Positions 8,472-62,566 of a DNA stretch of 64,000 nt are shown here, piece by piece. The translations under genes were made by a program, and so were the position numbers. The notes beneath the pieces are model-generated. The model did no database searches. It was not told the origin of the DNA and was given only the letters and a program-made list of their open reading frames with translations. This stretch comes from an archaeon (GTDB lineage: Archaea; Nanobdellota; Nanobdellia; Pacearchaeales; GW2011-AR1): positions 8,484-72,483 of the forward strand of contig JBDROH010000022.1 in assembly GCA_043810285.1 (NCBI GenBank). The letters are read 5' to 3'. Each line of letters starts with the position of its first letter. The first letter of the stretch is position 1.

Positions 8472-9875
8472 TTATTTATGCTTTCCAAATATCTCTCTAA
8501 CATAAACGAACAAAACATCCATATTCATAGCCCACCGAAGAATAGTGCCCCTAAAAAACCCATATTTCTTTTCTTTAACAGGCTGAGAATAATCAAAAGT
8601 TTTATACCCAAATCCCCCAAAATATTTCTTAACATAACAATTTAATCCTGCTTCAACACGATATTTATATTTAAAATACTTAGGAAGAGTCTCCCAAACA
8701 ATTCTTCTCATTGCTCTTTCTCCAGAATTCAAAGCAATGAGACGAATCGTTTTTTGCATAAAATTACTCCTTAATCCAATAAACATATTGAAATCACCTC
8801 TTTTAACTGGTTCAATTATCCCTTTAATTATCTCTAAATTTAATCCTATCAGATCAGCATCACAAAAGAAAATAATATCTGCATCAGTTGAAAACACCCC
8901 TCTTTCCATCGATTCCGCCTTTCCAAGATTTTTCTCATTTTTAAAATATCTAACCTTTGGAAATTTTCTTACTATCTCATATGTATTATCCCTTGATCCA
9001 TCGTCAACAACAACAATTTCATCTATGGACTTGGATTTACTAATGACTTTTAGAACACTCCTTATTCTCTTGGACTCATTAAAAGAAGGTATTATTGCAG
9101 CAACCTTATTTTCATCTTTTTTCCCAAAAAGATTATTCTTTTCAATGAAATCTCCTATCACTCCACAGATTTCATCATCGTATTCTGAAAAAAACAAATT
9201 ATGAACTTTTGTATTAAAAATTTTCTGTTGTTTAACAAAAGATTTTACCTTTTTATTTATATCTCTTATAGAAGCATAATGACCAATTGGATCCAAATAT
9301 GAATGAATTGAAAGAATGGGACAATTTATATTTTCAAATTTTTCTCTCAATTTTTGAGCAGCTTGTTTTGAGATAAAAAATCCATTTACATGCATAAAGT
9401 CATAACTAAAAGCATTTTTTCTCTTTTCTTTTTCATTTTCACATCGATTTTTCCCCCAATATTTTTTATACTTTCTTAAAACCCCTATTCCCCACACATT
9501 AAAAGGAAATTTAAAAAGATAAGGTGGACAAACATCAAAGACACCAAGTATTGGATATTCTGAAGAAAAAGTTAATGCGAGCATAGCACCAAAACTAATC
9601 CCTCCAAGGATTATTCTTCTCCCTTTTCTAATGTCTTTTTCTAATTCTCTTTTAATTTGTTTAAAAAAATCTTCATATTCAAGATTATCTAGATCTTTTA
9701 CATTAGTTCCATGGCCACGTAAAAGAATAATTTTCACATTAGCATTAAATTTTTTATTCAAATAAGCTGGTAAATTGTTGAAATCTGTTGGGCTTCCAGT
9801 ATAGCCATGAATAAGAAAGAACTCCCGATTCGAATTAGCCTTCAATTCTATTGTTTTTACTTTTTCTTCAACCAT
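8472..9875 (-). CDS. Fusion protein: N-terminal alpha/beta-hydrolase (esterase/lipase GxSxG) and C-terminal family-2 glycosyltransferase
   Basis: N-terminal HGYTGSPTDF and GGISFGAMLAL (GxSxG). C-terminal AAIIPSFNESKRIRSV...VVVDDGSRDNT (GT2 DxD region). Confidence 0.65.
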   Translation of the reverse strand: MVEEKVKTIELKANSNREFFLIHGYTGSPTDFNNLPAYLNKKFNANVKIILLRGHGTNVKDLDNLEYEDFFKQIKRELEKDIRKGRRIILGGISFGAMLALTFSSEYPILGVFDVCPPYLFKFPFNVWGIGVLRKYKKYWGKNRCENEKEKRKNAFSYDFMHVNGFFISKQAAQKLREKFENINCPILSIHSYLDPIGHYASIRDINKKVKSFVKQQKIFNTKVHNLFFSEYDDEICGVIGDFIEKNNLFGKKDENKVAAIIPSFNESKRIRSVLKVISKSKSIDEIVVVDDGSRDNTYEIVRKFPKVRYFKNEKNLGKAESMERGVFSTDADIIFFCDADLIGLNLEIIKGIIEPVKRGDFNMFIGLRSNFMQKTIRLIALNSGERAMRRIVWETLPKYFKYKYRVEAGLNCYVKKYFGGFGYKTFDYSQPVKEKKYGFFRGTILRWAMNMDVLFVYVREIFGKHK

Positions 9876-13985: not shown

Positions 13986-14034
13986 TTGTAATTTAATTGA
14001 AGAATTGATTTAAAAGACTTACTATTTTTTCTTT

Positions 14035-14988
14035 GTTGTGCAAGCAAGTGACATATGTCACCCCCTAAAACAATAGCTCAAAATCATTATAAATTTCATC
14101 TGGCGTTTTATTATCCAAGCTCATATGTGGTCTAAAATGATTATAGTTCATTCTCCAGAGCTCAACATCTTCATTGCAAAACTTAAACTCTCTTTTGAAA
14201 GTTTGAAACAATCTCTCAACTTTTCCTTGCGTTGTTGGGCTATGAACTGTTCCTCTAATGTGTTCTATTCCCCTCTTTCTACATCTTCTGTCAAATCTTG
14301 AATGTCTGCTTTTCAAACCATAAGCTGAACCATTATCAGTTAGAATTTGTTTTGGCTTGCCATAAATTTTAATTAACTTATCGATTAAATTTATCACAAT
14401 ATCCGTCGTAACAACGTTAGTTACAGCAAAAGCTAAACTTTTTCTTGAGCAATCATCGACGACAGAAACTACCCACTTATCTTTAATTTTTTGTTGGCTA
14501 TGATCAATCTGCCAAAGAGAATTAGGACGTTTTCTTTGAAAACGAATATATTTTATTCTTTTCTTTTTTCTTTTAGTTGGTTCAGTTAGTTTGTGTTTGT
14601 TTAGAATTTTATTAATAGATGTATGGCTTAAGTTTACAAAGTTTTCAATTTTTTCAGCCCCAAAACCAGTTTTCTCTCTTATAGAAATAATCTTATTTTC
14701 TATCTCTTTAGTTATTTTTCTATGAATCATTTTAGGACGTCTGGACTTATCATTCAAATCCCAATTATCATTTGTATCTAATTCGTGTACCCATCTTTTC
14801 AAAGTTCGATTAGTTATTTCGAATTTATGTTTTACAAAAAGTATTTTTCTACATTGGTTATATGAATGTCCCTCCATTTTTAGTTTAAAAAATATCTTTC
14901 TGATTTCTTCTTTTTTCATAAAAAGAATCAAAAAACACTGCGGAACTAATTTTCGGTGCTAGTGACATATGTCACTGGATTGCACACT
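14035..14988. mobile_element. Insertion sequence of about 950 bp with 18-19 bp imperfect terminal inverted repeats and a palindromic core AGTGACATATGTCAC at both ends
   Basis: Left TGTGCAAGCAAGTGACATATGTCAC (14035-14061) and right AGTGACATATGTCACTGGATTGCACA (14962-14988) flank a single transposase ORF. Confidence 0.75.
14065..14931 (-). CDS. DDE transposase with integrase core (rve) domain and N-terminal HTH, IS481/IS3-like
   Basis: WQIDHSQQKIKDKWVVSVVDDCSRKSLAFAVT....ILTDNGSAYG shows the D..D..E core pattern. An N-terminal helix-turn-helix region is present. Confidence 0.8.
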   Translation of the reverse strand: MILFMKKEEIRKIFFKLKMEGHSYNQCRKILFVKHKFEITNRTLKRWVHELDTNDNWDLNDKSRRPKMIHRKITKEIENKIISIREKTGFGAEKIENFVNLSHTSINKILNKHKLTEPTKRKKKRIKYIRFQRKRPNSLWQIDHSQQKIKDKWVVSVVDDCSRKSLAFAVTNVVTTDIVINLIDKLIKIYGKPKQILTDNGSAYGLKSRHSRFDRRCRKRGIEHIRGTVHSPTTQGKVERLFQTFKREFKFCNEDVELWRMNYNHFRPHMSLDNKTPDEIYNDFELLF

Positions 14989-15208
14989 ATTTTTTCTTTG
15001 TTTTCTTTTTTGTCTTATTTTCTGAAATCTTTGCAACTTCTACTCGGAGTTTTTCAATTTCTTCTAAGAGTGTTGCGTGATTTAGACTAAGGTGTTGTAT
15101 TTTCTCATGAATATCTGAAAAGGCATCGTTAAGCATTAACATATCTTTTTTCACATACCCGAAACTCGCAGAGATATCTTTTTCAATTTGTTTAATTGAT
15201 TTTTCCAT
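14987..15208 (-). CDS. Small coiled-coil protein (hypothetical)
   Basis: 73-aa ORF with heptad pattern and a Lys-rich tail. Weak support. Confidence 0.25.
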   Translation of the reverse strand: MEKSIKQIEKDISASFGYVKKDMLMLNDAFSDIHEKIQHLSLNHATLLEEIEKLRVEVAKISENKTKKKTKKK

Positions 15209-18042: not shown

Positions 18043-18360
18043 TTGTGTCTTATGTCAAAAGTACGAATCAAATTGCAAAGTGTAGAAATCGGTAAATTGA
18101 ATGACGTTATCGATATGATAAAAACTATTGCTAGCGGTGCAGGAATTCCAATAAGTGGACCGATTCCATTACCGACGAAGCGATTGAAAGTAACTACTAG
18201 GAAATCTCCTTGCGGTGATGGAACTGCAACTTTCGACAGATTCGAAATGAGGATTCACAAACGTATTATTGATTTACCTGCTAATGATAAAATTCTTCAT
18301 AGTATTATGAGAATCAATATTCCTAGAACGGTTAAGATTAAGATTGAGATGGTTGATTAA
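18043..18360 (+). CDS. rps10: Ribosomal protein uS10
   Basis: Archaeal S10 sequence: RIKLQSVEIGKLNDVIDMIKTIASGAGIPISGPIPLPTKRLKVTTRKSPCGDGTATFDRFEMRIHKRIID. Confidence 0.85.
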   Translation: MCLMSKVRIKLQSVEIGKLNDVIDMIKTIASGAGIPISGPIPLPTKRLKVTTRKSPCGDGTATFDRFEMRIHKRIIDLPANDKILHSIMRINIPRTVKIKIEMVD

Positions 18361-18399: not shown

Positions 18400-18834
18400 T
18401 TGACTATGATGACCCCATTACAATCTAGAATTGAACTTTCAGTTACAGGAGGTCTAGGTTATGATAGTAGAACGGATTTTTCTAAATCTTATAGTATCTA
18501 TTCCGATTATTTATCTCCGGAGGAAGTTAAGAATACTAGTGAGGGTTTAAAGGCACATTTAAGGGAATTGGCTAGTCCCGAGTATCGTCTTTATGGCGTA
18601 TGTTCTGGATTTCTTTTTTCTTCTACAGGAATAAGGATGGACATTATGACTTCTAGTAAGTTTAGAGATATGCAAATGAAGTGGAAGAATAGGAAACTAA
18701 TTGACAAAGCATATAATACTTTAGCAAGAGAACAAGGTAGGATAAACACTTTTGTTAGTGGGTTTATGAAAAAGGCATTTAGAGATAACCCCTTAGGTTT
18801 AATTGAATATCTTAATTCTACAAATTCTAGTTAA
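18400..18834 (+). CDS. Hypothetical protein
   Basis: 144-aa ORF between rps10 and tRNA-Ser. No recognisable motif. Confidence 0.4.
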   Translation: MTMMTPLQSRIELSVTGGLGYDSRTDFSKSYSIYSDYLSPEEVKNTSEGLKAHLRELASPEYRLYGVCSGFLFSSTGIRMDIMTSSKFRDMQMKWKNRKLIDKAYNTLAREQGRINTFVSGFMKKAFRDNPLGLIEYLNSTNSS

Positions 18835-18857
18835 TCTTAAAAACCATTCTCTCGGTT

Positions 18858-18938
18858 ATTGTATATTGCCCATATCGCATAACGGTATTGCACAAGACTG
18901 GAACTCTTGACCCTTCGGGGTGCCCAGGTTCGACTCCT
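18858..18938 (+). tRNA. tRNA-Ser (GGA), class II with a long variable arm
   Basis: Acceptor GCCCATA/TGTGGGC. Anticodon stem CAAGA/TCTTG with loop CTGGAAC. A 14-nt variable arm. T arm CCAGG-TTCGACT-CCTGG. 81 nt. Confidence 0.8.
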
Positions 18939-18964
18939 GGTGTGGGCGTAAATTAAAATCAAGT

Positions 18965-19774
18965 CTAAGCAAACCCCTTACTAATTCCCTCTTTCCAAAA
19001 TGAAGGTAATGGATTACTCACAAACCCTCGAAATTTCCCAGAATAAATATGCGTCAACCCTTGGTGTTCTTTAAACCTCTCAAAATCCTTATCTGCAGAC
19101 TCATAAATTTTCTGGACTATCTTTCTCTCAAAATCTTTCTGCAATAATGACGAAGGCTTCAATACCAGAAAATCAGCCTGCCTTAAAATATTTACTTCAA
19201 GATTCGAAGAATTCTGCGATATAAAGATTATACTAATATTTTTATGCCGAGCAACCATTATCAACTGACTCAGCAATTTATTCGCACTACTCATAGAACT
19301 TCTAGAATTAAATAAAACCCCTCCCTCATCAATCAAAACCATAGAATTATTCTTAATCTCTCCAATATCCGAGACTACATTTATCCAAGAAGGTAGCTCT
19401 TCTTTCCGAAACCCTATCGCAAAACATTCTTTCTCATACTTAGAATAAAAATTCTCCAAAAACTTTATCGCAAACGCAGTCTTCCCGGATCCCCTCGCAC
19501 CAAGGATAATCCCCATCTGACTATCTGACTTCGAAACATCATTTACCCATTCGGAATAATCACCTTCTATAACATGAATTATTTTAAATTTCTCATACTT
19601 TGAATTAATAGAATCTCGTTTCTTCTTCACTTTTACCTCCCTATCTTTTTCTGATATTTTTTTATCAAGCAAATACGCTCCCTTAAAGCAATAATACGGA
19701 AGTTTTACTATAAACAATAAACCTTTCCCTAAATATCTTAAAAATTTAGAAACTTTCTTCTTCCTCTTTTTCAT
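18965..19774 (-). CDS. P-loop NTPase with an N-terminal membrane segment (Zot-like/unknown family), lying between two tRNA-Ser genes
   Basis: Walker A GARGSGKTA, Walker B MVLIDEGG, and a hydrophobic N-terminal region. Confidence 0.55.
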   Translation of the reverse strand: MKKRKKKVSKFLRYLGKGLLFIVKLPYYCFKGAYLLDKKISEKDREVKVKKKRDSINSKYEKFKIIHVIEGDYSEWVNDVSKSDSQMGIILGARGSGKTAFAIKFLENFYSKYEKECFAIGFRKEELPSWINVVSDIGEIKNNSMVLIDEGGVLFNSRSSMSSANKLLSQLIMVARHKNISIIFISQNSSNLEVNILRQADFLVLKPSSLLQKDFERKIVQKIYESADKDFERFKEHQGLTHIYSGKFRGFVSNPLPSFWKEGISKGFA

Positions 19775-19883
19775 ACTTACTAGATAGATTTCAGAATTAT
19801 AAATTTATGCTTATACTTCTTTAACACAAGCAGTCATCTAAGCGTAAAACCTTAAAAACCTCTCCCTTCTAAAATGTCTATAA

Positions 19884-19964
19884 GCCCATATCGCATAATG
19901 GTATTGCACCGGTCTAGAAAACCGGGTCCGAAAGGGCATCCCCGTTCGATTCGGGGTATGGGCG
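19884..19964 (+). tRNA. tRNA-Ser-like class II tRNA with an apparent anticodon AGA (A34). Its 5' half is identical to tRNA-Ser(GGA) at 18858
   Basis: Acceptor GCCCATA/TATGGGC. Anticodon stem CCGGT/ACCGG with loop CTAGAAA. A 14-nt variable arm. T arm CCCCG-TTCGATT-CGGGG. A 3'-end fragment is repeated at 20053-20069. Confidence 0.6.
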
Positions 19965-20102
19965 TTTTAGAATCGAACGTTCGATTTGAGCATCTTCGCT
20001 TTGAACAAAAACAAAATTCAAATAAATATTTTTGTGAAATGCAAAGTGCGAACAGGGATATGGGCGTTTAAAATGATTTCTTGAGTTAAGGGAAGAATTA
20101 AT

Positions 20103-21479
20103 TTATCTTCTATGCCTTCTATTCCCTGAACCTGATCTGCTTCTTCCCTCTCTACCTCTACTTGAGTTTGGTCTACTTGAACTTTGTCTTCTTGAACCAG
20201 TTCTAAAATTTCCCCTACCGCCATCATCTCGACTCTCACCCCTACGAGCACTTCTTCCATGTCCACCACCTCTTTCACGACCGCCGGTACGACCACTTTG
20301 ATTTCTTGGTGCTGGTTTTGCATCTTTACCTTCGGCACTTTTTGCTTTTACAGAATGATATTTGTGTTCTGCTTGTTGAGTTTTTCTTTTTGTTAATCTT
20401 TCTATTTGATTAAGATAGTTTCTATCTTCTGCTGCACAAAATGAATACGCAGTTCCTTCGCTTCCAGCTCTAGCAGTTCTTCCGATTCGGTGAATATAAT
20501 TTTCTGGTTCGTTTGGTAAATCATAGTTTATGACGTGACTAATGTTTTCAATATCAATTCCTCTAGCTGCAATATCTGTTGCTACTAGAACTCTAACTTT
20601 ACCAAGTTTAAAATTATTCAAAGCCCTTGTTCTCTGATGTTGTGACTTATTACCATGAATAGCGTCTGAAGCTATTCCGCTCATATTTAATACTCTTACA
20701 ACCTTATCGGCTCGGTACTTCATTCCAACGAATACTAATACTCGGTTTATGTTTTGCTGTTTGATTAAATCGATTAATAACTCATTCTTGTTTTCTTGGT
20801 CTACAAAGAACACACATTGTTCAATTTTTTCTACAGGGGTTGACTGAGGTGTGATTTCTATTTTCACCGGGTGTTTTAGAAATTTTCTTGTTAGTTCTTC
20901 TATTTCTCTAGACATTGTTGCTGAGAAAAATAAGGATTGTTTTTCGTTTGGTAATGAAGACGCGATTTTGTTAACATCTTTTGAGAATCCCATATCAAGC
21001 ATTCGGTCTGCTTCGTCTAAAGTAAAAAATTCTACTTTGCCAAGATTTACTTTTCCTTGGTTCATTAAATCTACCAATCTTCCAGGTGTAGCGATGAGAA
21101 TGTCGACTCCGTGTTGAAGCGTTCTTATTTGTGGCCCTATTCCTACACCGCCATATACTGCTAGATGTTTGAACTTAAGGAATTTGCCATAAGTTTCAAA
21201 ACTCTCAGAGATTTGTGCGGCTAGTTCTCTCGTTGGTGCTAAGATAAGTGCCTTGGGTATTGTCGCCTTGTTGAAACCATATTTCTCATACAATTTCTGT
21301 AACATAGGAACAACGAATGCGGCGGTTTTCCCAGTTCCAGTTTGTGCAATTCCAATTACATCCCTTTCATCTAAAAGTAAGGGAATAGTTTTTTCTTGTA
21401 TTGGTGTTGGCTCTACATAGCCTTCTTTCTCGAGTGCTCTCAGGAGCGGTTCTATAATCTTTAATGATTTGAATTCCAT
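20103..21479 (-). CDS. DEAD-box ATP-dependent RNA helicase with a C-terminal Arg/Gly/Ser-rich tail. The start is taken at the internal Met MEFKSLKII
   Basis: Q-motif region TPIQ, Walker A AQTGTGKT, DEAD box (TLDEADRMLDMGF), SAT, HRIGRTARAG and an RG-rich tail. Confidence 0.85.
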   Translation of the reverse strand: MEFKSLKIIEPLLRALEKEGYVEPTPIQEKTIPLLLDERDVIGIAQTGTGKTAAFVVPMLQKLYEKYGFNKATIPKALILAPTRELAAQISESFETYGKFLKFKHLAVYGGVGIGPQIRTLQHGVDILIATPGRLVDLMNQGKVNLGKVEFFTLDEADRMLDMGFSKDVNKIASSLPNEKQSLFFSATMSREIEELTRKFLKHPVKIEITPQSTPVEKIEQCVFFVDQENKNELLIDLIKQQNINRVLVFVGMKYRADKVVRVLNMSGIASDAIHGNKSQHQRTRALNNFKLGKVRVLVATDIAARGIDIENISHVINYDLPNEPENYIHRIGRTARAGSEGTAYSFCAAEDRNYLNQIERLTKRKTQQAEHKYHSVKAKSAEGKDAKPAPRNQSGRTGGRERGGGHGRSARRGESRDDGGRGNFRTGSRRQSSSRPNSSRGREGRSRSGSGNRRHRR

Positions 21480-21599
21480 AATGAATAAACGAAAAATGGC
21501 TATATAAAGGGGGTAGTATAATAAAGACCTATAGAATTCAAGTTCTATTGGTTCCAAAGAACATTCTAACTAATTTCTCTATAACCTTTCTAAATAAAT

Positions 21600-37577: not shown

Positions 37578-37648
37578 TGGGCACAGGAGGAATCAAACCC
37601 CCGCCCCCCGGGCTGGAGCCGAGTAGACTATCATTATCCGATGCACCC
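37578..37648 (-). tRNA. Candidate tRNA-Trp (CCA) with a non-canonical T-loop
   Basis: An isolated roughly 100-nt GC-rich island in an AT-rich intergenic region. Acceptor GGGTGCA/TGTGCCC with two G-U pairs. Anticodon stem CTCGG/CCGGG with loop CTCCAGC. T arm GGGGG-TTTGATT-CCTCC with U at position 56. 71 nt. Confidence 0.45.
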
Positions 37649-54168: not shown

Positions 54169-54468
54169 TTATTTTTTTTTATTTACAGAAGATAAATCTT
54201 TAGAAGCGATAGAAAAAACTTCGCATTCAAAGTCAAGATTTAGTTCCTTGGCTAAATCTTCTTTAGATTTCAAAACAATAAATTCGACTCCTGCGGAATC
54301 CAGTTTTTCAACAGTTTCATCTCGAGCATCTTTACTAATAAAAACATTAGATAATTTGACCCCCTTCGATTTGGGGTCTGCCGAGTGGCCAGCATGTTTC
54401 AAGGCCTGTCGAATCCCAAAGTAAACCTTTCCTTGTTCTATCGCTTCATTAATTTCCTTTACTGACAT
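54169..54468 (-). CDS. rpl30e: Ribosomal protein eL30 (L7Ae/L30e fold)
   Basis: 99 aa with the GKVYFGIRQALK N-terminal region. Canonical position after rpoA. Confidence 0.75.
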   Translation of the reverse strand: MSVKEINEAIEQGKVYFGIRQALKHAGHSADPKSKGVKLSNVFISKDARDETVEKLDSAGVEFIVLKSKEDLAKELNLDFECEVFSIASKDLSSVNKKK

Positions 54469-57400
54469 TTTTTTTAACTCCCTTCGATTTTTCCCGTTCC
54501 GCTAAAGAACCTGTAACTTTAACCAATAAACCTGGAAGACCTGTTCCAACAGGAACTGGTTGGTTTAATATAATATTCTCGATTACCGACGCTAGCCTAT
54601 CCCTCTTACCTGTCTTTGTTGCCTGGACAAATTGAGGAACTGGAGTTTCAAATGAGGCTCTTGCTAAAATCGAACTCTTATCCGAAATAATACCCATTCG
54701 AGTAATACCCTTAACCACTCCAGAAGCAGTCATTGTATCTGCAACCAACATAGCATGTTTCCAGTCAATTGCAAGACCTTGGGAGGTAACAACTTTTTGA
54801 ATCTCATTAATTATCGCCTGTCGTGCAGCCTCGATACCAATAGTATTAGCAATCTCATGAATGTCATTAGTAACAACCTTGTCACTATCAACGCCTTTGA
54901 ACTTCAAAATTTCTTTCAAGTTTGAACCTGCAGTCAAAATAACATAGTCCCTCTCTCGCTTAACAACTAATACTTGAGAAATACCTTTAATACCTGTCAA
55001 GATAACTTCCTTAAGTTTTTCTTTAGTTTTATAAATCATCTTGAAATCTTCTTTAGCCATATCAAGCACAAAACCATCTGAGGATTTTTTCGCACTAAAG
55101 CCTTTTTCATTCAAAACCTTAAGAGCACTATCAATATTGATATGTGCCGCCTTCAATCCAGTTGAATCAACACCAATCTTAATTTTCTTCGAACCAAAAT
55201 CAATAGCAATATCAGAAATAATTTCCTTCAACTTAACCTCTTTAATCTTCTCCGCAATAACTCTTGCGTCCTTCTCATTATTATGCTCTTTATCTAAATA
55301 GATTTCCATCGAAGGAGTTTTAGGTAATTTTCTCGCATCTAAAATTTCAACAAGTCTCGGAAGACCTTGGGTAACCTGCATTTCCGCTACACCCGCCGCA
55401 TGGAACACATTCAGAACCATCTGCGTCGACGCCTCTCCAAAAGACTGAGCAGTCACAACACCAATAGCCTCGCCAGGCGCAACCTTGCCACCAGTATGCT
55501 TAGCTGAAATATCAACACCATCAAGACCATAAATATATTGAACGATATTATTTGAAGCATCTCTTACAGTTCCATCATAAGCCACAACCAAATCCTGCAA
55601 AGCATTCGCTAAACGTCTAAATAAATAACCAGACTTAGGAGTTCTAAGTGCAACATCCATTAGACCATCTCTTCCAGTCATAGCACCAAAAAATAATTCA
55701 TCAGGTTCAAAACCTTTCATCAAAGAACTATAAATAAATCCGTGGGGTCTTGGCGACAAATCTCCTTTCTTGAAAAACGGTAAAGTTCTTTCAGTATAAC
55801 CAAAATCAATTCTACGCCCGTGAAGAACTTGCTGTCCAACCGAACAAGCAATCTGAGTAATATTCAACAAACTTCCCCCAGCTCCAGAGCTAATCATCTT
55901 ATTCGCTAAATTATCTTTAGGAAAACCAGCCTTAACAGCGTCACCAATATCAGTTCGAATCTCATTCAAAGCATGCAAAATCTTAGTTTCCCTCGTTTCC
56001 TCAGCACTCTTTCCAGGCAAACATTCAAGACTTTTATCGTAATAACTTTCTATAATCTTTTGGGTCTTAATTTCCGCAGCCTCGATAATTTTTTGAGTCT
56101 TCTTCTTAACTTCTTCAGGAACGTCAAGATCATCTGCAGAAAGAGTAAATCCCGTTCTCGACACAAAATTTGCTCCCAATGAAAAAACCTTTTTCAAAAG
56201 TTCAATAGTTCTCTCTCGACCAATCTTCTTATCTGCGATTCTCAGAACTGCACCGCTACCACTCTTAAATCCCTTAGGATCGATACTCTCATTTGCAATT
56301 TCCTTAGGAATAAGTTTCGCAAAAATATCTTTTCCAGAATTATTCTTATTCAAATTCCCCACCTCTACATTATTTTCGTACAACAACTGAGCCGCATCCT
56401 CTTTACTCAATTCGGATTCACCAAGAATGAAATTACCACTAACAGCGTCCTTAACACATCCAATAAAATTCATATTATTCTTAGGTGAAAATAGGTTCGC
56501 GTTGACATTCAACAAAATTTTTGCCTCAGCTCGAGCTTCTTCGGTTTGAGGAGCATGGATATTCATTTCATCACCATCAAAATCCGCACCATAAGGAGCA
56601 CAAACTGCTGGATGAATTCTGAACGTCCTTCCGGGAAGAACCTTTACTAAATGAGCCATAAGCGAAGCCCTATGCAAAGACGGATGTCGGTTAAATAAAA
56701 CAATATCTCCATCAACAAGATGTCGTTCAACAATATAACCTGGCTCAATTTCGTTCTGCAAATCTTCTCTCAAATCATCAGTAATTCGCTTCCTCTTTTC
56801 ATCAGGTCGAATAATATAATTAGCTCCAGGGTAACCCTTAGCCGCAATCAATTTTTTCATACGATTAATATTTCTAGAAGTAACTTTCTCAGCTACAGTC
56901 AAAACATTAGCAACAGTTAAGGGAATACCTACTTCATTCAACTTCAAATTAGGATCTGGAGAAATCACAGTTCTTGCAGAATAATTAACTCTCTTCCCCG
57001 CTAAATTCTTCCTAATTCTACCTTCCTTACCTTTAATTCTTTCAGTAATAGTCTTCAATGGCTGTCCACTTCTATGCCTTGCAGGAGGAATCTTAGCGAT
57101 AGAATTATCAAAAAATGTAGTAATATGATATTGCAATAAATCCCAAAGATCTTCGATAATAACTTCAGGCGCACCCGCATTCAAATTTTCCCAAAGCCTT
57201 TGATTAGACCGAATAATATCTGACAACTTATGAGTTAGGTCATCCTCTGATCTTTCACCAGTTTGTAACGTAATTGAAGGACGCACAGCGACGGAAGGAA
57301 CAAGTAACAGCGTCAATATAGCCCATTCAGGTCTTAAAGTTGCTGCATTAATTCCCAATACCTTCAAATCCTCGTCAGGAACATTAACTAATCTCTCACG

Positions 57401-57883
57401 AATCTCTGAAGGAAACAATCTCCTTCGCCCACTTCTAAAAGTGCATGGCTTCTCAAGCTTAACCCTTTCCTGAACAATACTACAATGAGGACATTTTTTC
57501 CCATCCTTTGCTTTTTTAATCCTATCAATTAAAGGTTTATTCAAATCTTTCTCATCTTTAATCAAAACTTTTCCACAAGCTTCACAAGTCGATCTTAAAA
57601 CCAAATCAATAATAGGCAGATATTTGATATGAACAATTGGTCGAGCTAACTCAATCATTCCAGGATGACCTAAACATTCTTTCAATCGCCCACCACAAGT
57701 CCTACACCTAACACCCGGGTCAATAGCACCAAGTCGCAAATCCATCAAACCACCGTCAACAGGATAACCATCCACATCATAAAGTTCAGGAGTTACAATT
57801 TTCGCAACAGATAATTTTTTAATCTGTTCAGGACTAACTAAATGAAAATTCATTCCACTAACTTGTTTCTTTACAGGTCTCAT
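54449..57883 (-). CDS. rpoA: DNA-directed RNA polymerase subunit A as a single fused A'/A'' polypeptide of 1144 aa
   Basis: Clamp/zipper Cys motifs, NRHPSLH, the active-site YGADFDGDEMN, bridge helix GRDGLMDVALRTPKSGYLFRRL, the trigger loop (normally in A'') GEAIGVVTAQSFGEASTQMVLNVFHAAG, and an A''-like C-terminus, all in one frame with no stop. Confidence 0.9.
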   Translation of the reverse strand: MRPVKKQVSGMNFHLVSPEQIKKLSVAKIVTPELYDVDGYPVDGGLMDLRLGAIDPGVRCRTCGGRLKECLGHPGMIELARPIVHIKYLPIIDLVLRSTCEACGKVLIKDEKDLNKPLIDRIKKAKDGKKCPHCSIVQERVKLEKPCTFRSGRRRLFPSEIRERLVNVPDEDLKVLGINAATLRPEWAILTLLLVPSVAVRPSITLQTGERSEDDLTHKLSDIIRSNQRLWENLNAGAPEVIIEDLWDLLQYHITTFFDNSIAKIPPARHRSGQPLKTITERIKGKEGRIRKNLAGKRVNYSARTVISPDPNLKLNEVGIPLTVANVLTVAEKVTSRNINRMKKLIAAKGYPGANYIIRPDEKRKRITDDLREDLQNEIEPGYIVERHLVDGDIVLFNRHPSLHRASLMAHLVKVLPGRTFRIHPAVCAPYGADFDGDEMNIHAPQTEEARAEAKILLNVNANLFSPKNNMNFIGCVKDAVSGNFILGESELSKEDAAQLLYENNVEVGNLNKNNSGKDIFAKLIPKEIANESIDPKGFKSGSGAVLRIADKKIGRERTIELLKKVFSLGANFVSRTGFTLSADDLDVPEEVKKKTQKIIEAAEIKTQKIIESYYDKSLECLPGKSAEETRETKILHALNEIRTDIGDAVKAGFPKDNLANKMISSGAGGSLLNITQIACSVGQQVLHGRRIDFGYTERTLPFFKKGDLSPRPHGFIYSSLMKGFEPDELFFGAMTGRDGLMDVALRTPKSGYLFRRLANALQDLVVAYDGTVRDASNNIVQYIYGLDGVDISAKHTGGKVAPGEAIGVVTAQSFGEASTQMVLNVFHAAGVAEMQVTQGLPRLVEILDARKLPKTPSMEIYLDKEHNNEKDARVIAEKIKEVKLKEIISDIAIDFGSKKIKIGVDSTGLKAAHINIDSALKVLNEKGFSAKKSSDGFVLDMAKEDFKMIYKTKEKLKEVILTGIKGISQVLVVKRERDYVILTAGSNLKEILKFKGVDSDKVVTNDIHEIANTIGIEAARQAIINEIQKVVTSQGLAIDWKHAMLVADTMTASGVVKGITRMGIISDKSSILARASFETPVPQFVQATKTGKRDRLASVIENIILNQPVPVGTGLPGLLVKVTGSLAEREKSKGVKKNVSKGN

Positions 57884-62125: not shown

Positions 62126-62289
62126 AAAAAATAAACCTCCTGAGACTATTTAAAAACTTATATGATAAAGATATATATTCAAATTTATTTGAGGATAAAT
62201 TTATTCTTGCCTTAAATATTCCGCCCTGTATGTACTTCTGGTGAAGCAATCCCACAAGTTTTTAAATCAAAATTTCTCATAGATACTAT

Positions 62290-62364
62290 GGCTCCGTAGC
62301 TCAGTCTGGCTAGAGCACTGGACTTTTAATCCAGGTGTCGGGGGTTCAAATCCCCTCGGGGCCA
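62290..62364 (+). tRNA. tRNA-Lys (TTT)
   Basis: Acceptor GGCTCCG/CGGGGCC. D arm GCTC-AGTCTGGCTA-GAGC. Anticodon stem CTGGA/TCCAG with loop CTTTTAA. T arm GGGGG-TTCAAAT-CCCCT. 75 nt. Confidence 0.85.
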
Positions 62365-62566
62365 TAAGTGCTATCGAAGATAGCACATATTCTCTGGAGA
62401 TTTTAAGTCACGGCAAAGTCGGGGGCGAAGAATTTGCTCCGAGTAAAATAAAATTCAGATAGATATTTTTACGAGGTGTGAATTATGAGTAAAATCCCCT
62501 CGGGGCCATAAAAATTTGAAATCACGAACAACATAGTTTTAAATAATCCAACGCTTATTTTTTCTG

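Follow-up and report, generated by a model that had tools for sequence, protein, structure and literature searches.

An archaeal tRNA-Ser(AGA) conserved across a clade of DPANN archaea, and the tRNA-bounded flank unit that follows it

Introduction

Can an archaeon rely on a tRNA whose anticodon begins with adenosine (A34)? This question is raised by a 64,000-nucleotide (nt) stretch of archaeal DNA (GenBank assembly GCA_043810285.1, contig JBDROH010000022.1, forward strand, positions 8,484 to 72,483; the whole stretch is hereafter called the window), in which a tRNA-Ser(GGA) gene is followed by a second serine tRNA gene with the anticodon AGA. A34 tRNA genes were reported to be lacking in Archaea (PMC11066159), and in a count from GtRNAdb only 3 of 10,517 archaeal tRNAs had an anticodon beginning with A, archaea being without TadA/ADAT (bioRxiv 10.64898/2026.05.15.725136). 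These surveys agree with the remark, made in a preliminary description of the locus, that A34 is essentially unused in this domain. AT-rich bacteria with A34 tRNAs, on the other hand, are documented (bioRxiv 10.64898/2026.05.15.725136). A literature search pairing A34 or inosine-34 with DPANN taxa found, among the papers it covered, none mentioning both, and a preprint on complete Nanobdellota genomes (bioRxiv 10.64898/2026.05.13.725050) has no anticodon table in its text or supplement.

Here, we describe what, from comparison of sequences, appears to be a clade-wide archaeal A34 serine tRNA that is under selection and derived from a U34 rather than a G34 isoacceptor. In our reading the locus is, in all likelihood, an ordinary, vertically inherited GGA/AGA pair of a DPANN archaeon, in which the AGA gene is functional and UGA-derived, the ATPase gene lying between the two is unrelated to them, and the repeat downstream belongs to a trailer unit bounded by the tRNA end.

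Results

Two class II serine tRNA genes, one of which carries the anticodon AGA

The presence of two class II tRNA-Ser genes, as given in the preliminary description, was borne out by ARAGORN, which called tRNA-Ser(gga) (18867-18949) and tRNA-Ser(aga) (19884-19964) among a total of four tRNAs for the window, and by Rfam RF00005, in which both genes scored above the gathering score of 29 bits (Table 1). The coordinates first proposed needed small corrections: the features exist, but the first tRNA starts at 18868 and not at 18858, and the repeated 3'-end fragment discussed below starts at 20055 and not at 20053. In the second gene, the anticodon AGA does indeed occupy 19916-19918 (A34 being 19916), and the Rfam alignment places CUAGAAA in the standard seven-base loop register. 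The acceptor stem (GCCCAUA/UAUGGGC) pairs perfectly, and the long variable arm forms a 3-4 bp stem with covariation. The features for charging with serine appear to be present, namely the long variable arm, G73, and a D-arm and acceptor stem common to other serine tRNAs.

Detection of this gene depended on the tool. Rfam with its default filters did not see tRNA-Ser(AGA) when the whole window was scanned, and found it when a small region was scanned unfiltered; the same filters overlook the AGA gene in two related loci, L184 and L255 (L-numbers are labels of the related contigs and loci compared). Conversely, tRNA-Trp(CCA) (37578-37648, minus strand; Rfam, 44.1 bits) was overlooked by ARAGORN. 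Either program alone under-calls tRNAs in this type of genome and, since filtered covariance-model scans overlook it, tRNA-Ser(AGA) may be under-reported. Apart from tRNA, no Rfam family was found in 19780-20110.

Each gene is preceded by a box resembling a B recognition element (BRE) and TATA element, and the two boxes form a direct repeat. Among 49 distinct regions upstream of AGA genes, 33, the window included, have a TT(T/A)AAA box that begins at -32 to -30. tRNA-Ser(AGA) has a predicted promoter of its own, from which a near-leaderless transcript would be made.

tRNA-Ser(AGA) is a conserved gene family

To place the gene among its relatives we used two surveys. The first, with one genome per species, looked for the serine D-arm 18-mer preceded by GC and returned at least 120 stretches, almost all of them from DPANN archaea; the anticodons among the matches listed were GCU (50), UGA (34), GGA (21), CGA (13) and AGA (5). 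ARAGORN found the AGA gene on these stretches in at least seven species-level genomes besides the window (L086, L100, L131, L140, L144, L163 and L184). The L140 gene holds an intron, the flanks of which are intact. The second survey scanned metagenomes for an AGA anticodon arm, with a pattern that demanded CTAGAA, and gave 62 contigs with 60 tRNA-Ser(AGA) genes.

In total, 37 distinct sequences of the family share one cloverleaf with a variable arm according to RNAalifold, with double compensatory changes, as counted over 33 variants, in 11 of 23 pairs, spread over the acceptor, D, anticodon, variable and T stems. All eight AGA genes that were recovered without a constraint on the loop read CTAGAA(A/C). 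Further, in L163 both the AGA gene and the adjoining GGA gene have A73, so that the identity position shifts in step.

As a single U-to-A change would suffice to create an AGA gene, and the filtered Rfam scan overlooked it, we considered whether it is a decaying or neutral mutant copy of a serine tRNA. This is exceedingly improbable. A pseudogene of this kind is difficult to reconcile with a covariance-model score of 52.6 bits and a perfect acceptor stem, with 37 variants on more than 60 contigs that show compensatory changes at 11 pairs, with an anticodon that is invariant in the eight genes found without loop constraint, with a promoter box of the gene's own, or with an intron-bearing allele whose intron flanks are intact. 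The score in the normal register, together with the compensatory changes, ruled out both a pseudogene and a different register of the anticodon loop, the two outcomes that the preliminary description had named as fatal to its anticodon call.

A viral origin of the tRNA was likewise considered and rejected. The D-arm 18-mer occurs in 72 IMG/VR contigs, but these matches come from serine tRNAs of phages in which the acceptor stem is of the GGA type; the tRNA-Ser(AGA) pattern had no match in IMG/VR, and the D-arm is universal in the clade. Distribution, compensatory changes, promoter and the lack of a viral match together argue for a cellular gene kept by selection, and tRNA-Ser(AGA) is thus very probably a functional serine tRNA.

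The phage matches held an observation of separate interest: arrays of 9-23 tRNA genes on six IMG/VR contigs (L009, L020, L022, L030, L040 and L064) include a serine tRNA with the same D-arm and the anticodon ACT, that is, A34 in a two-codon box. One of these contigs, L020, also carries tRNA-Gly(ACC), and a recent preprint calls such anticodons absent from phages.

The AGA gene resembles tRNA-Ser(UGA) and can occupy its chromosomal slot

With the anticodon loop masked, the nearest serine tRNA with another anticodon was of the UGA type for 25 of the 37 AGA variants and of the CGA type for the remaining 12; it was never of the GGA type, and the distance from the AGA variants to any GGA tRNA was 11-17. 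In addition, the anticodon stem CCGGU/ACCGG is shared with several UGA tRNAs. The simplest origin of tRNA-Ser(AGA) would therefore be a U34-to-A change in a UGA-type gene, and not a copy of its GGA neighbor.

Gene order points in the same direction. Many genomes with a UGA gene have the order L1, P0, L12, (CGA), UGA, cyclophilin-type peptidyl-prolyl isomerase (PPIase), AMP phosphorylase (DeoA) and permease, in which the CGA gene is optional. In L184 the order is L1, P0, L12, CGA, GGA, AGA, PPIase; L251 represents the left part of this arrangement (L1, P0, L12, CGA, GGA, AGA) and L255 the right part (CGA, GGA, AGA, PPIase). None of these three loci has a UGA gene beside AGA. Thus, in at least some genomes (L184 and, in part, L251 and L255), AGA sits in the chromosomal slot held elsewhere by tRNA-Ser(UGA).

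In the lineage of the window, the pair follows the S10 gene and not L12. From the window's own species, GGA, AGA, GCU (L160) and CGA (L260) genes were recovered and no UGA gene, in a look that was not exhaustive; in L260, no UGA gene follows the CGA gene.

What A34 would read, and whether it replaces U34

UCU is the commonest serine codon (28-31%), and in AGA loci UCA still accounts for 22-25% of serine codons, so that some tRNA has to read UCA. By the base-pairing rules, A34 would read UCU through an A:U pair, tRNA-Ser(CGA) would read UCG, and the GGA tRNA would read UCC and UCU. If the UGA tRNA has been replaced, tRNA-Ser(AGA) would also have to serve UCA. The most plausible route to this would be deamination of A34 to inosine, the alternative being loose reading by unmodified A34. 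In its fullest form, this proposal holds that a large Woese/Pacearchaeota-type clade swapped UGA for AGA and reads UCU, UCC and UCA by means of inosine-34, made by an unrecognized archaeal tRNA adenosine deaminase that was acquired horizontally or evolved anew. If so, wobble-inosine decoding would here have its first archaeal example.

Several results weigh against this proposal. Look-ups by P0 in other species found the slot between L12 and PPIase empty in L268 and filled by UGA in L261, L262 and L265, and these three are close relatives with UGA exactly where it is expected. That AGA and UGA occurred together in none of six genomes is weak evidence (approximately p = 0.08), the genomes being sparsely sampled and most of them having yielded one isoacceptor. 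The conservation of the loop in the metagenome set is circular, given that CTAGAA was demanded by the pattern, and serine codon usage did not differ clearly between AGA loci and UGA loci. Moreover, a TadA-like gene, which the preliminary description had suggested looking for, was not detected by tBLASTn with E. coli TadA in the window and 1.27 Mb of related DNA, where a scan for the CDA-type zinc motif returned one dCMP-deaminase-like ORF (open reading frame; L094) and nothing else. Finally, a GGA gene adjoins AGA in the window and in 36 of the 60 metagenome loci, whereas the known inosine systems spare G34.

A different reading takes tRNA-Ser(AGA) as an extra, dedicated reader of UCU with unmodified A34, which arose from a duplicated tRNA-Ser(UGA) that is kept elsewhere in the genome, and which helps an AT-rich genome. 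The share of UCU among serine codons, the retention of GGA, the deaminase searches and the UGA gene in the usual slot of close relatives are all in line with it, as are the A34 tRNAs of AT-rich bacteria and the tolerance of E. coli for an engineered, unmodified tRNA-Ser(AGA) (bioRxiv 10.64898/2026.05.15.725136). However, it fits poorly with those loci in which AGA itself fills the UGA slot with no UGA gene beside it, or with the lack of any genome carrying both genes in the partial survey; and, as GGA already reads UCU, an additional reader would be of small benefit for so well conserved a gene. We regard this reading as possible, if short of probable.

Weighing slot and sequence against these objections, we consider replacement of tRNA-Ser(UGA) by tRNA-Ser(AGA) in its genomes to be somewhat favored. 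Conversion of A34 to inosine is a more doubtful matter, the remainder of the probability going to unmodified A34 that reads loosely, and the full proposal of a clade-wide swap with a novel deaminase is best regarded as tentative and rather unlikely.

The 5' halves, the spacer and the ATPase gene

The two tRNA genes were initially described as having identical 5' halves. They do match over the first 26 nt except for a single C/T difference (overall identity, 71%), but the match carries another meaning than the one first given to it. All serine isoacceptors found in the clade (GCU, UGA, GGA, CGA and AGA, in about 100 genomes) have the 18-mer TCGCATAAYGGTATTGCA as their D-arm, and acceptor stems co-vary among the serine isoacceptors of one genome. 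As the 5' half is common to all serine tRNAs of the clade, it is no sign of a recent partial duplication.

The P-loop ATPase reported between the tRNA genes was found there, with the GARGSGKT motif and an N-terminal hydrophobic segment (Table 1). Its Pfam matches are weak (Zot, Pox_A32 and a KaiC-type P-loop). Its family counts 1,271 homologues at E <= 0.001. The best 120 of these 1,271 (P0001-P0120) have identities of 62-100% and lengths of 261-290 amino acids (aa); their sources are labeled Nano- or Pacearchaeota, and the contigs that carry them reach 832 kb. In other genomes, the gene has housekeeping genes as neighbors; in JANLHN01, for example, it shares a contig with the tRNA pair at a distance of 35 kb. 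It adjoins the AGA gene only in the sublineage of the window (L213, L225, L238, L242, L208 and L220), and stands between GGA and AGA where both are in the locus (L208, L220, L238 and L242). With identities of 62-97% over more than 1,200 DPANN sequences, the family is among the best-conserved proteins of the clade; it has no assigned function.

GGA precedes AGA in 33 of the 38 loci tabulated. The two are separated by 34-40 nt in 10 metagenome loci and in L184, and in further loci by other genes, which encode an RlmN/Cfr-like radical-SAM enzyme, a Cys-rich secreted protein, methyltransferases, a phosphodiesterase or a uracil-DNA glycosylase. This makes the spacer an insertion hotspot. From its distribution, the ATPase gene appears to be a conserved chromosomal gene of Nano/Pace/Woesearchaeota with no relation to the two tRNA genes, and to have come to lie between them in the lineage of the window.

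The RlmN/Cfr-like gene (274-281 aa, with LCLSSQVGCAMGCxFC) was seen between GGA and AGA or directly 3' of AGA in L131, L199, L245, L239 and L197. In bacteria, RlmN adds a methyl group to A37 in certain tRNAs; A37 is also present in the AGA tRNAs.

In the preliminary description, the ATPase was proposed as a possible remnant of an integrated element that had copied a portion of the tRNA. Spelled out, such an element would have entered a gene for tRNA-Ser and left behind two tRNAs with identical 5' halves and a 3' fragment serving as attachment-site repeat. tRNA genes are classic targets of integration, the 3' end of the tRNA is repeated exactly over 11 nt at a distance of 102 nt downstream, the ATPase is weakly similar to Zot/A32 and phage families, and a near-identical relative (L213) is without the repeat. 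Nevertheless, the ATPase lies outside the pair of repeats, between which there are only 88 bp and no ORF, and no integrase gene is found near the tRNA pair. The ATPase family is not patchy in its distribution: its members lie on chromosomal contigs in varied housekeeping contexts. Also, the GGA/AGA pair is older than the insertion, as seen from the 34-40 nt gaps and the different spacer genes of other loci, serine tRNAs of every anticodon found in the clade share the 5' half, and the AGA body is not GGA-like. The idea of a mobile-element remnant was therefore dropped, ruled out by more than 1,200 conserved homologues and their housekeeping contexts, while the clade-wide occurrence of trailer units (see below) also speaks against it; an integrated element as the source of the locus is very unlikely.

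What may be a genuine integrated element was seen beside a different serine tRNA gene of the window's species. In L260 (JBDRJI010000022.1, 536-10496), tRNA-Ser(CGA) and a 194-nt trailer unit are followed by approximately 8 kb with hypothetical genes, a tyrosine integrase and a recombinase, and then by S9 and L13.

A trailer unit bounded by the tRNA end

The perfect 16-bp palindrome noted earlier as an echo of the T-arm, AATCGAACGTTCGATT, lies at 19971-19986, and its left half, GAATCGAACG, is the perfect complement of the T-arm segment CGTTCGATTC (19943-19952). The same layout of T-run, T-arm complement and T-loop copy recurs in L140, L113, L160, L215, L234 and L086. It is followed by a conserved imperfect hairpin module, of which a profile found 18 matches in 1.35 Mb, all 18 within 280 nt of a tRNA gene (serine of any anticodon, or tRNA-Pro). 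In an alignment of 14 sequences, compensatory changes were present in 7 of the 15 pairs of the module.

The duplicated 3' end of the tRNA closes the unit. In agreement with the original observation, the 64 kb hold two copies of the 11-mer TATGGGCGTTT, one at 19957 and one at 20059, and no others. In relatives, the 3'-end copy co-varies with the tRNA that the unit follows. The survey of end copies covered 174 non-redundant serine tRNA genes with sufficient flanking sequence. An exact 10-nt repeat of the gene's own 3' end stands no more than 400 nt downstream in 38 of them and upstream in one; in a mirror image, the gene's own 5' end is repeated upstream in 35 and downstream in one. Internal 10-mers recur only 1-2 times. 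Copies are often in tandem (L111, L086, L140 and L165), and trailer units were seen after GGA, CGA, UGA, GCU, Pro and Lys tRNA genes. End copies also stand beside 4 of 49 other tRNAs, including tRNA-Lys of the window, whose trailer unit (Table 1) means that flank repeats are not confined to serine tRNAs. The number of units varies: L213, which has the same AGA tRNA and a 97%-identical ATPase, has none, and L140 has two.

Upstream units cluster with genuine anticodon-loop introns, that of L138 with the introns of L079 and L085, and those of L147 and L188 with a tRNA-Asp intron. The likeness of the window-type 3' module to the intron of the L140 AGA gene was seen by eye only. Regarding the upstream units, two further features were observed. 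Among the AGA upstream regions L195-L256, those with a 5'-end copy (e.g., L216, L165 and L201) have the promoter box approximately 30 nt before the copy and not before the true start of the tRNA; and the units hold a complement to nt 5-12 of the tRNA and close, just before +1, with RATGATGAGC, which is similar to a box C motif. These features hint at an unusual route of 5' maturation or at a site for a K-turn protein.

A trace of gene replacement was noticed in L113 (4950-5200), 3' of a tRNA-Ser(CGA) gene with the acceptor sequence GCCCATA. There, the second unit ends in CGATTCGGGGTGTGGGCGTACAATAT, which corresponds to the 3' end and trailer of the L150 CGA gene; it looks as if the whole CGA gene had been replaced and its old 3' end left behind.

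Could the downstream unit be a functional RNA, that is, a small structured RNA that is co-transcribed with the tRNA and freed by RNase Z, or a 3' exon that the splicing endonuclease attaches as an alternative? The module is conserved across genomes and different tRNAs, always near a tRNA 3' end, has compensatory changes in nearly half of its pairs and ends in a second T-run, and the 5'-side units group with genuine introns. Yet single-sequence folding of the trailer was no better than that of shuffled controls (z = -0.5 to -1.0), the 3'-end copy in the window is degenerate (GGGA, not GGGG), the close relative L213 lacks the unit, the copy number ranges from 0 to 4, and no Rfam family matches. 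Taken together, a functional RNA is conceivable but on the unlikely side. Palindrome and 3'-end copy appear instead to form one structured trailer unit, bounded by the tRNA end and distinct from an attachment site. It is probably a co-transcribed or recombination-derived flank that 3' processing removes. Such units, on both sides, may stem from recombination or insertion at the T-loop and D-loop, followed by unequal exchange, and normal end-processing would strip them from the transcript.

The locus, its host and neighboring features

Among the genes of the window are those for archaeal RNA polymerase A'/A'' and B, aEF-2 and EF-1alpha, and its G+C content is approximately 33%. Relatives matched by DNA pattern carry the labels Woesearchaeota, Pacearchaeota or Nanoarchaeota, and the host is a Woese/Pacearchaeota-type DPANN archaeon. 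The order SNase (minus strand), S10 (plus strand), tRNA-Ser(GGA), tRNA-Ser(AGA) was found again in more than 25 related loci; S10 and GGA are present without AGA in L111, L132, L165, L110 and L126. The features of the locus are collected in Table 1.

Table 1. Positions in the window of the tRNA pair, its flanking elements and the adjoining genes.
Feature	Position	Strand	Basis
Ribosomal protein S10 gene	18043..18360	+	Pfam Ribosomal_S10, E = 2.8e-27
BRE/TATA-like promoter box AATCTTAAAAACC, ~30 nt upstream of tRNA-Ser(GGA)	18833..18845	+	Direct repeat with the box of the AGA gene
tRNA-Ser(GGA), class II, long variable arm, discriminator G73, no encoded CCA	18868..18948	+	ARAGORN; Rfam RF00005, 55.7 bits
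Zot/A32-like P-loop ATPase, N-terminal hydrophobic segment, GARGSGKT	18965..19774	-	Pfam Zot, 29.2 bits; Pox_A32, 25.5 bits
BRE/TATA-like promoter box AACCTTAAAAACC, upstream of tRNA-Ser(AGA)	19848..19860	+	Direct repeat with the box of the GGA gene; box position in relatives
tRNA-Ser(AGA), discriminator G73	19884..19964	+	ARAGORN; Rfam RF00005, 52.6 bits
Start of trailer unit: T-run TTTTA, then GAATCGAACG, then T-loop copy TTCGATT	19965..19986	+	Inverted-repeat pair
Conserved imperfect hairpin module GAGCATCTTCGCTTTGA...GAAATGCAAAGTGCGAACA	19987..20054	+	Profile match 19987-20056, E = 2e-15
Degenerate tRNA 3'-end copy GGGATATGGGCGTTT (T-stem and acceptor 3' strands, discriminator, T-run), closing the trailer unit	20055..20069	+	11-mer repeat; 79% over 24 nt
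DEAD-box RNA helicase gene, convergent with the tRNA pair; marks the right end of the locus	20103..21557	-	Pfam DEAD, E = 6.3e-50; Helicase_C, E = 6e-34
tRNA-Lys(UUU) (62289-62365) and trailer unit ending in a 20-nt exact copy of its own 3' end, AAATCCCCTCGGGGCCATAA (62492-62511)	62289..62511	+	ARAGORN and repeat search

Two features away from the tRNA pair were also recorded. An insertion sequence at 14021-15002 contains an rve-type transposase ORF (14065-14931), has terminal inverted repeats that contain AGTGACATATGTCAC and lies between the copies of a 17-bp duplication, ACTATTTTTTCTTTGTT. It is polymorphic, being present in the window and missing from JAZDEA010000012.1 (L001; GCA_043809305.1), which apart from this one copy is 99.97% identical to the window. 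Further, the A' and A'' subunits of RNA polymerase, separate genes in most archaea, are here a single ORF of 1,144 aa (54449-57883, minus strand), with NCBIfam matches to the A' N-terminal part (best-scoring stretch, residues 4-530) and to A'' (residues 792-1116).

Discussion

One of the closest parallels to the gene described here is the eukaryotic cytoplasmic tRNA-Ser(AGA), whose A34 is converted to inosine by ADAT2/ADAT3. The two have in common the anticodon, the codon box, class II structure and G73, and in both a CGA isoacceptor is available for UCG. In contrast, eukaryotes drop the GGA gene and use a known deaminase, while the archaeal locus keeps GGA and no deaminase was found in the DNA searched.

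Among bacterial A34 tRNAs, which comprise tRNA-Arg(ACG), served by TadA, and tRNA-Leu(AAG) and tRNA-Thr(AGU) of AT-rich Lactobacillales and Mollicutes, there is likewise a precedent for A34 being fixed in a clade whose genomes are small and AT-rich, and tRNA-Arg(ACG) resembles the archaeal tRNA in its loop (C32-U33-A34...A37-A38). However, the bacterial A34 genes replace a G34 gene (bioRxiv 10.64898/2026.05.15.725136), whereas the archaeal AGA body is of the U34/C34 type and G34 is kept; and most of these bacteria encode TadA. Unmodified A34 that works in a reduced, AT-rich genome has its counterparts in tRNA-Thr(AGU) of Mycoplasma capricolum and in yeast mitochondrial tRNA-Arg(ACG) (see also PMC11066159). 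The codons read by those tRNAs are rare, or a U34 tRNA is present as well, while here UCA makes up about a quarter of serine codons.

With regard to the flank units, disrupted archaeal tRNA genes offer one comparison: introns, intron transposition, and split or permuted genes, as in Nanoarchaeum, Thermoproteales and Caldiarchaeum, likewise tie intron-like modules to partial copies of exons. The 5'-side units described here appear homologous to genuine anticodon-loop introns, and the promoter spacing would imply near-leaderless transcripts, as in N. equitans. Unlike in those disrupted genes, the tRNA genes of the present loci are intact and contiguous, and assembly of the tRNA does not require the fragments, which lie beyond the gene. 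A second comparison is with E. coli tyrT, in which tandem repeats of approximately 178 bp downstream of tRNA-Tyr each end in the last 19 nt of the tRNA. In both systems, the tRNA 3' end is copied at the close of each downstream unit, and the number of units varies. The DPANN units differ in being 55-190 nt long, in having a conserved hairpin and a T-arm complement, in occurring at many tRNA genes and in many genomes, and in having a mirror-image 5' counterpart.

The avoidance of A34 in Archaea is held to be ancient and nearly universal, and the clade that carries tRNA-Ser(AGA) would depart from it. The intron-related flank repeats bounded by tRNA ends are a second peculiarity of how tRNA genes have evolved in these genomes. 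As for the tRNA itself, it would offer a natural system in which to ask why A34 is normally avoided, and whether wobble inosine exists outside Bacteria and Eukarya.

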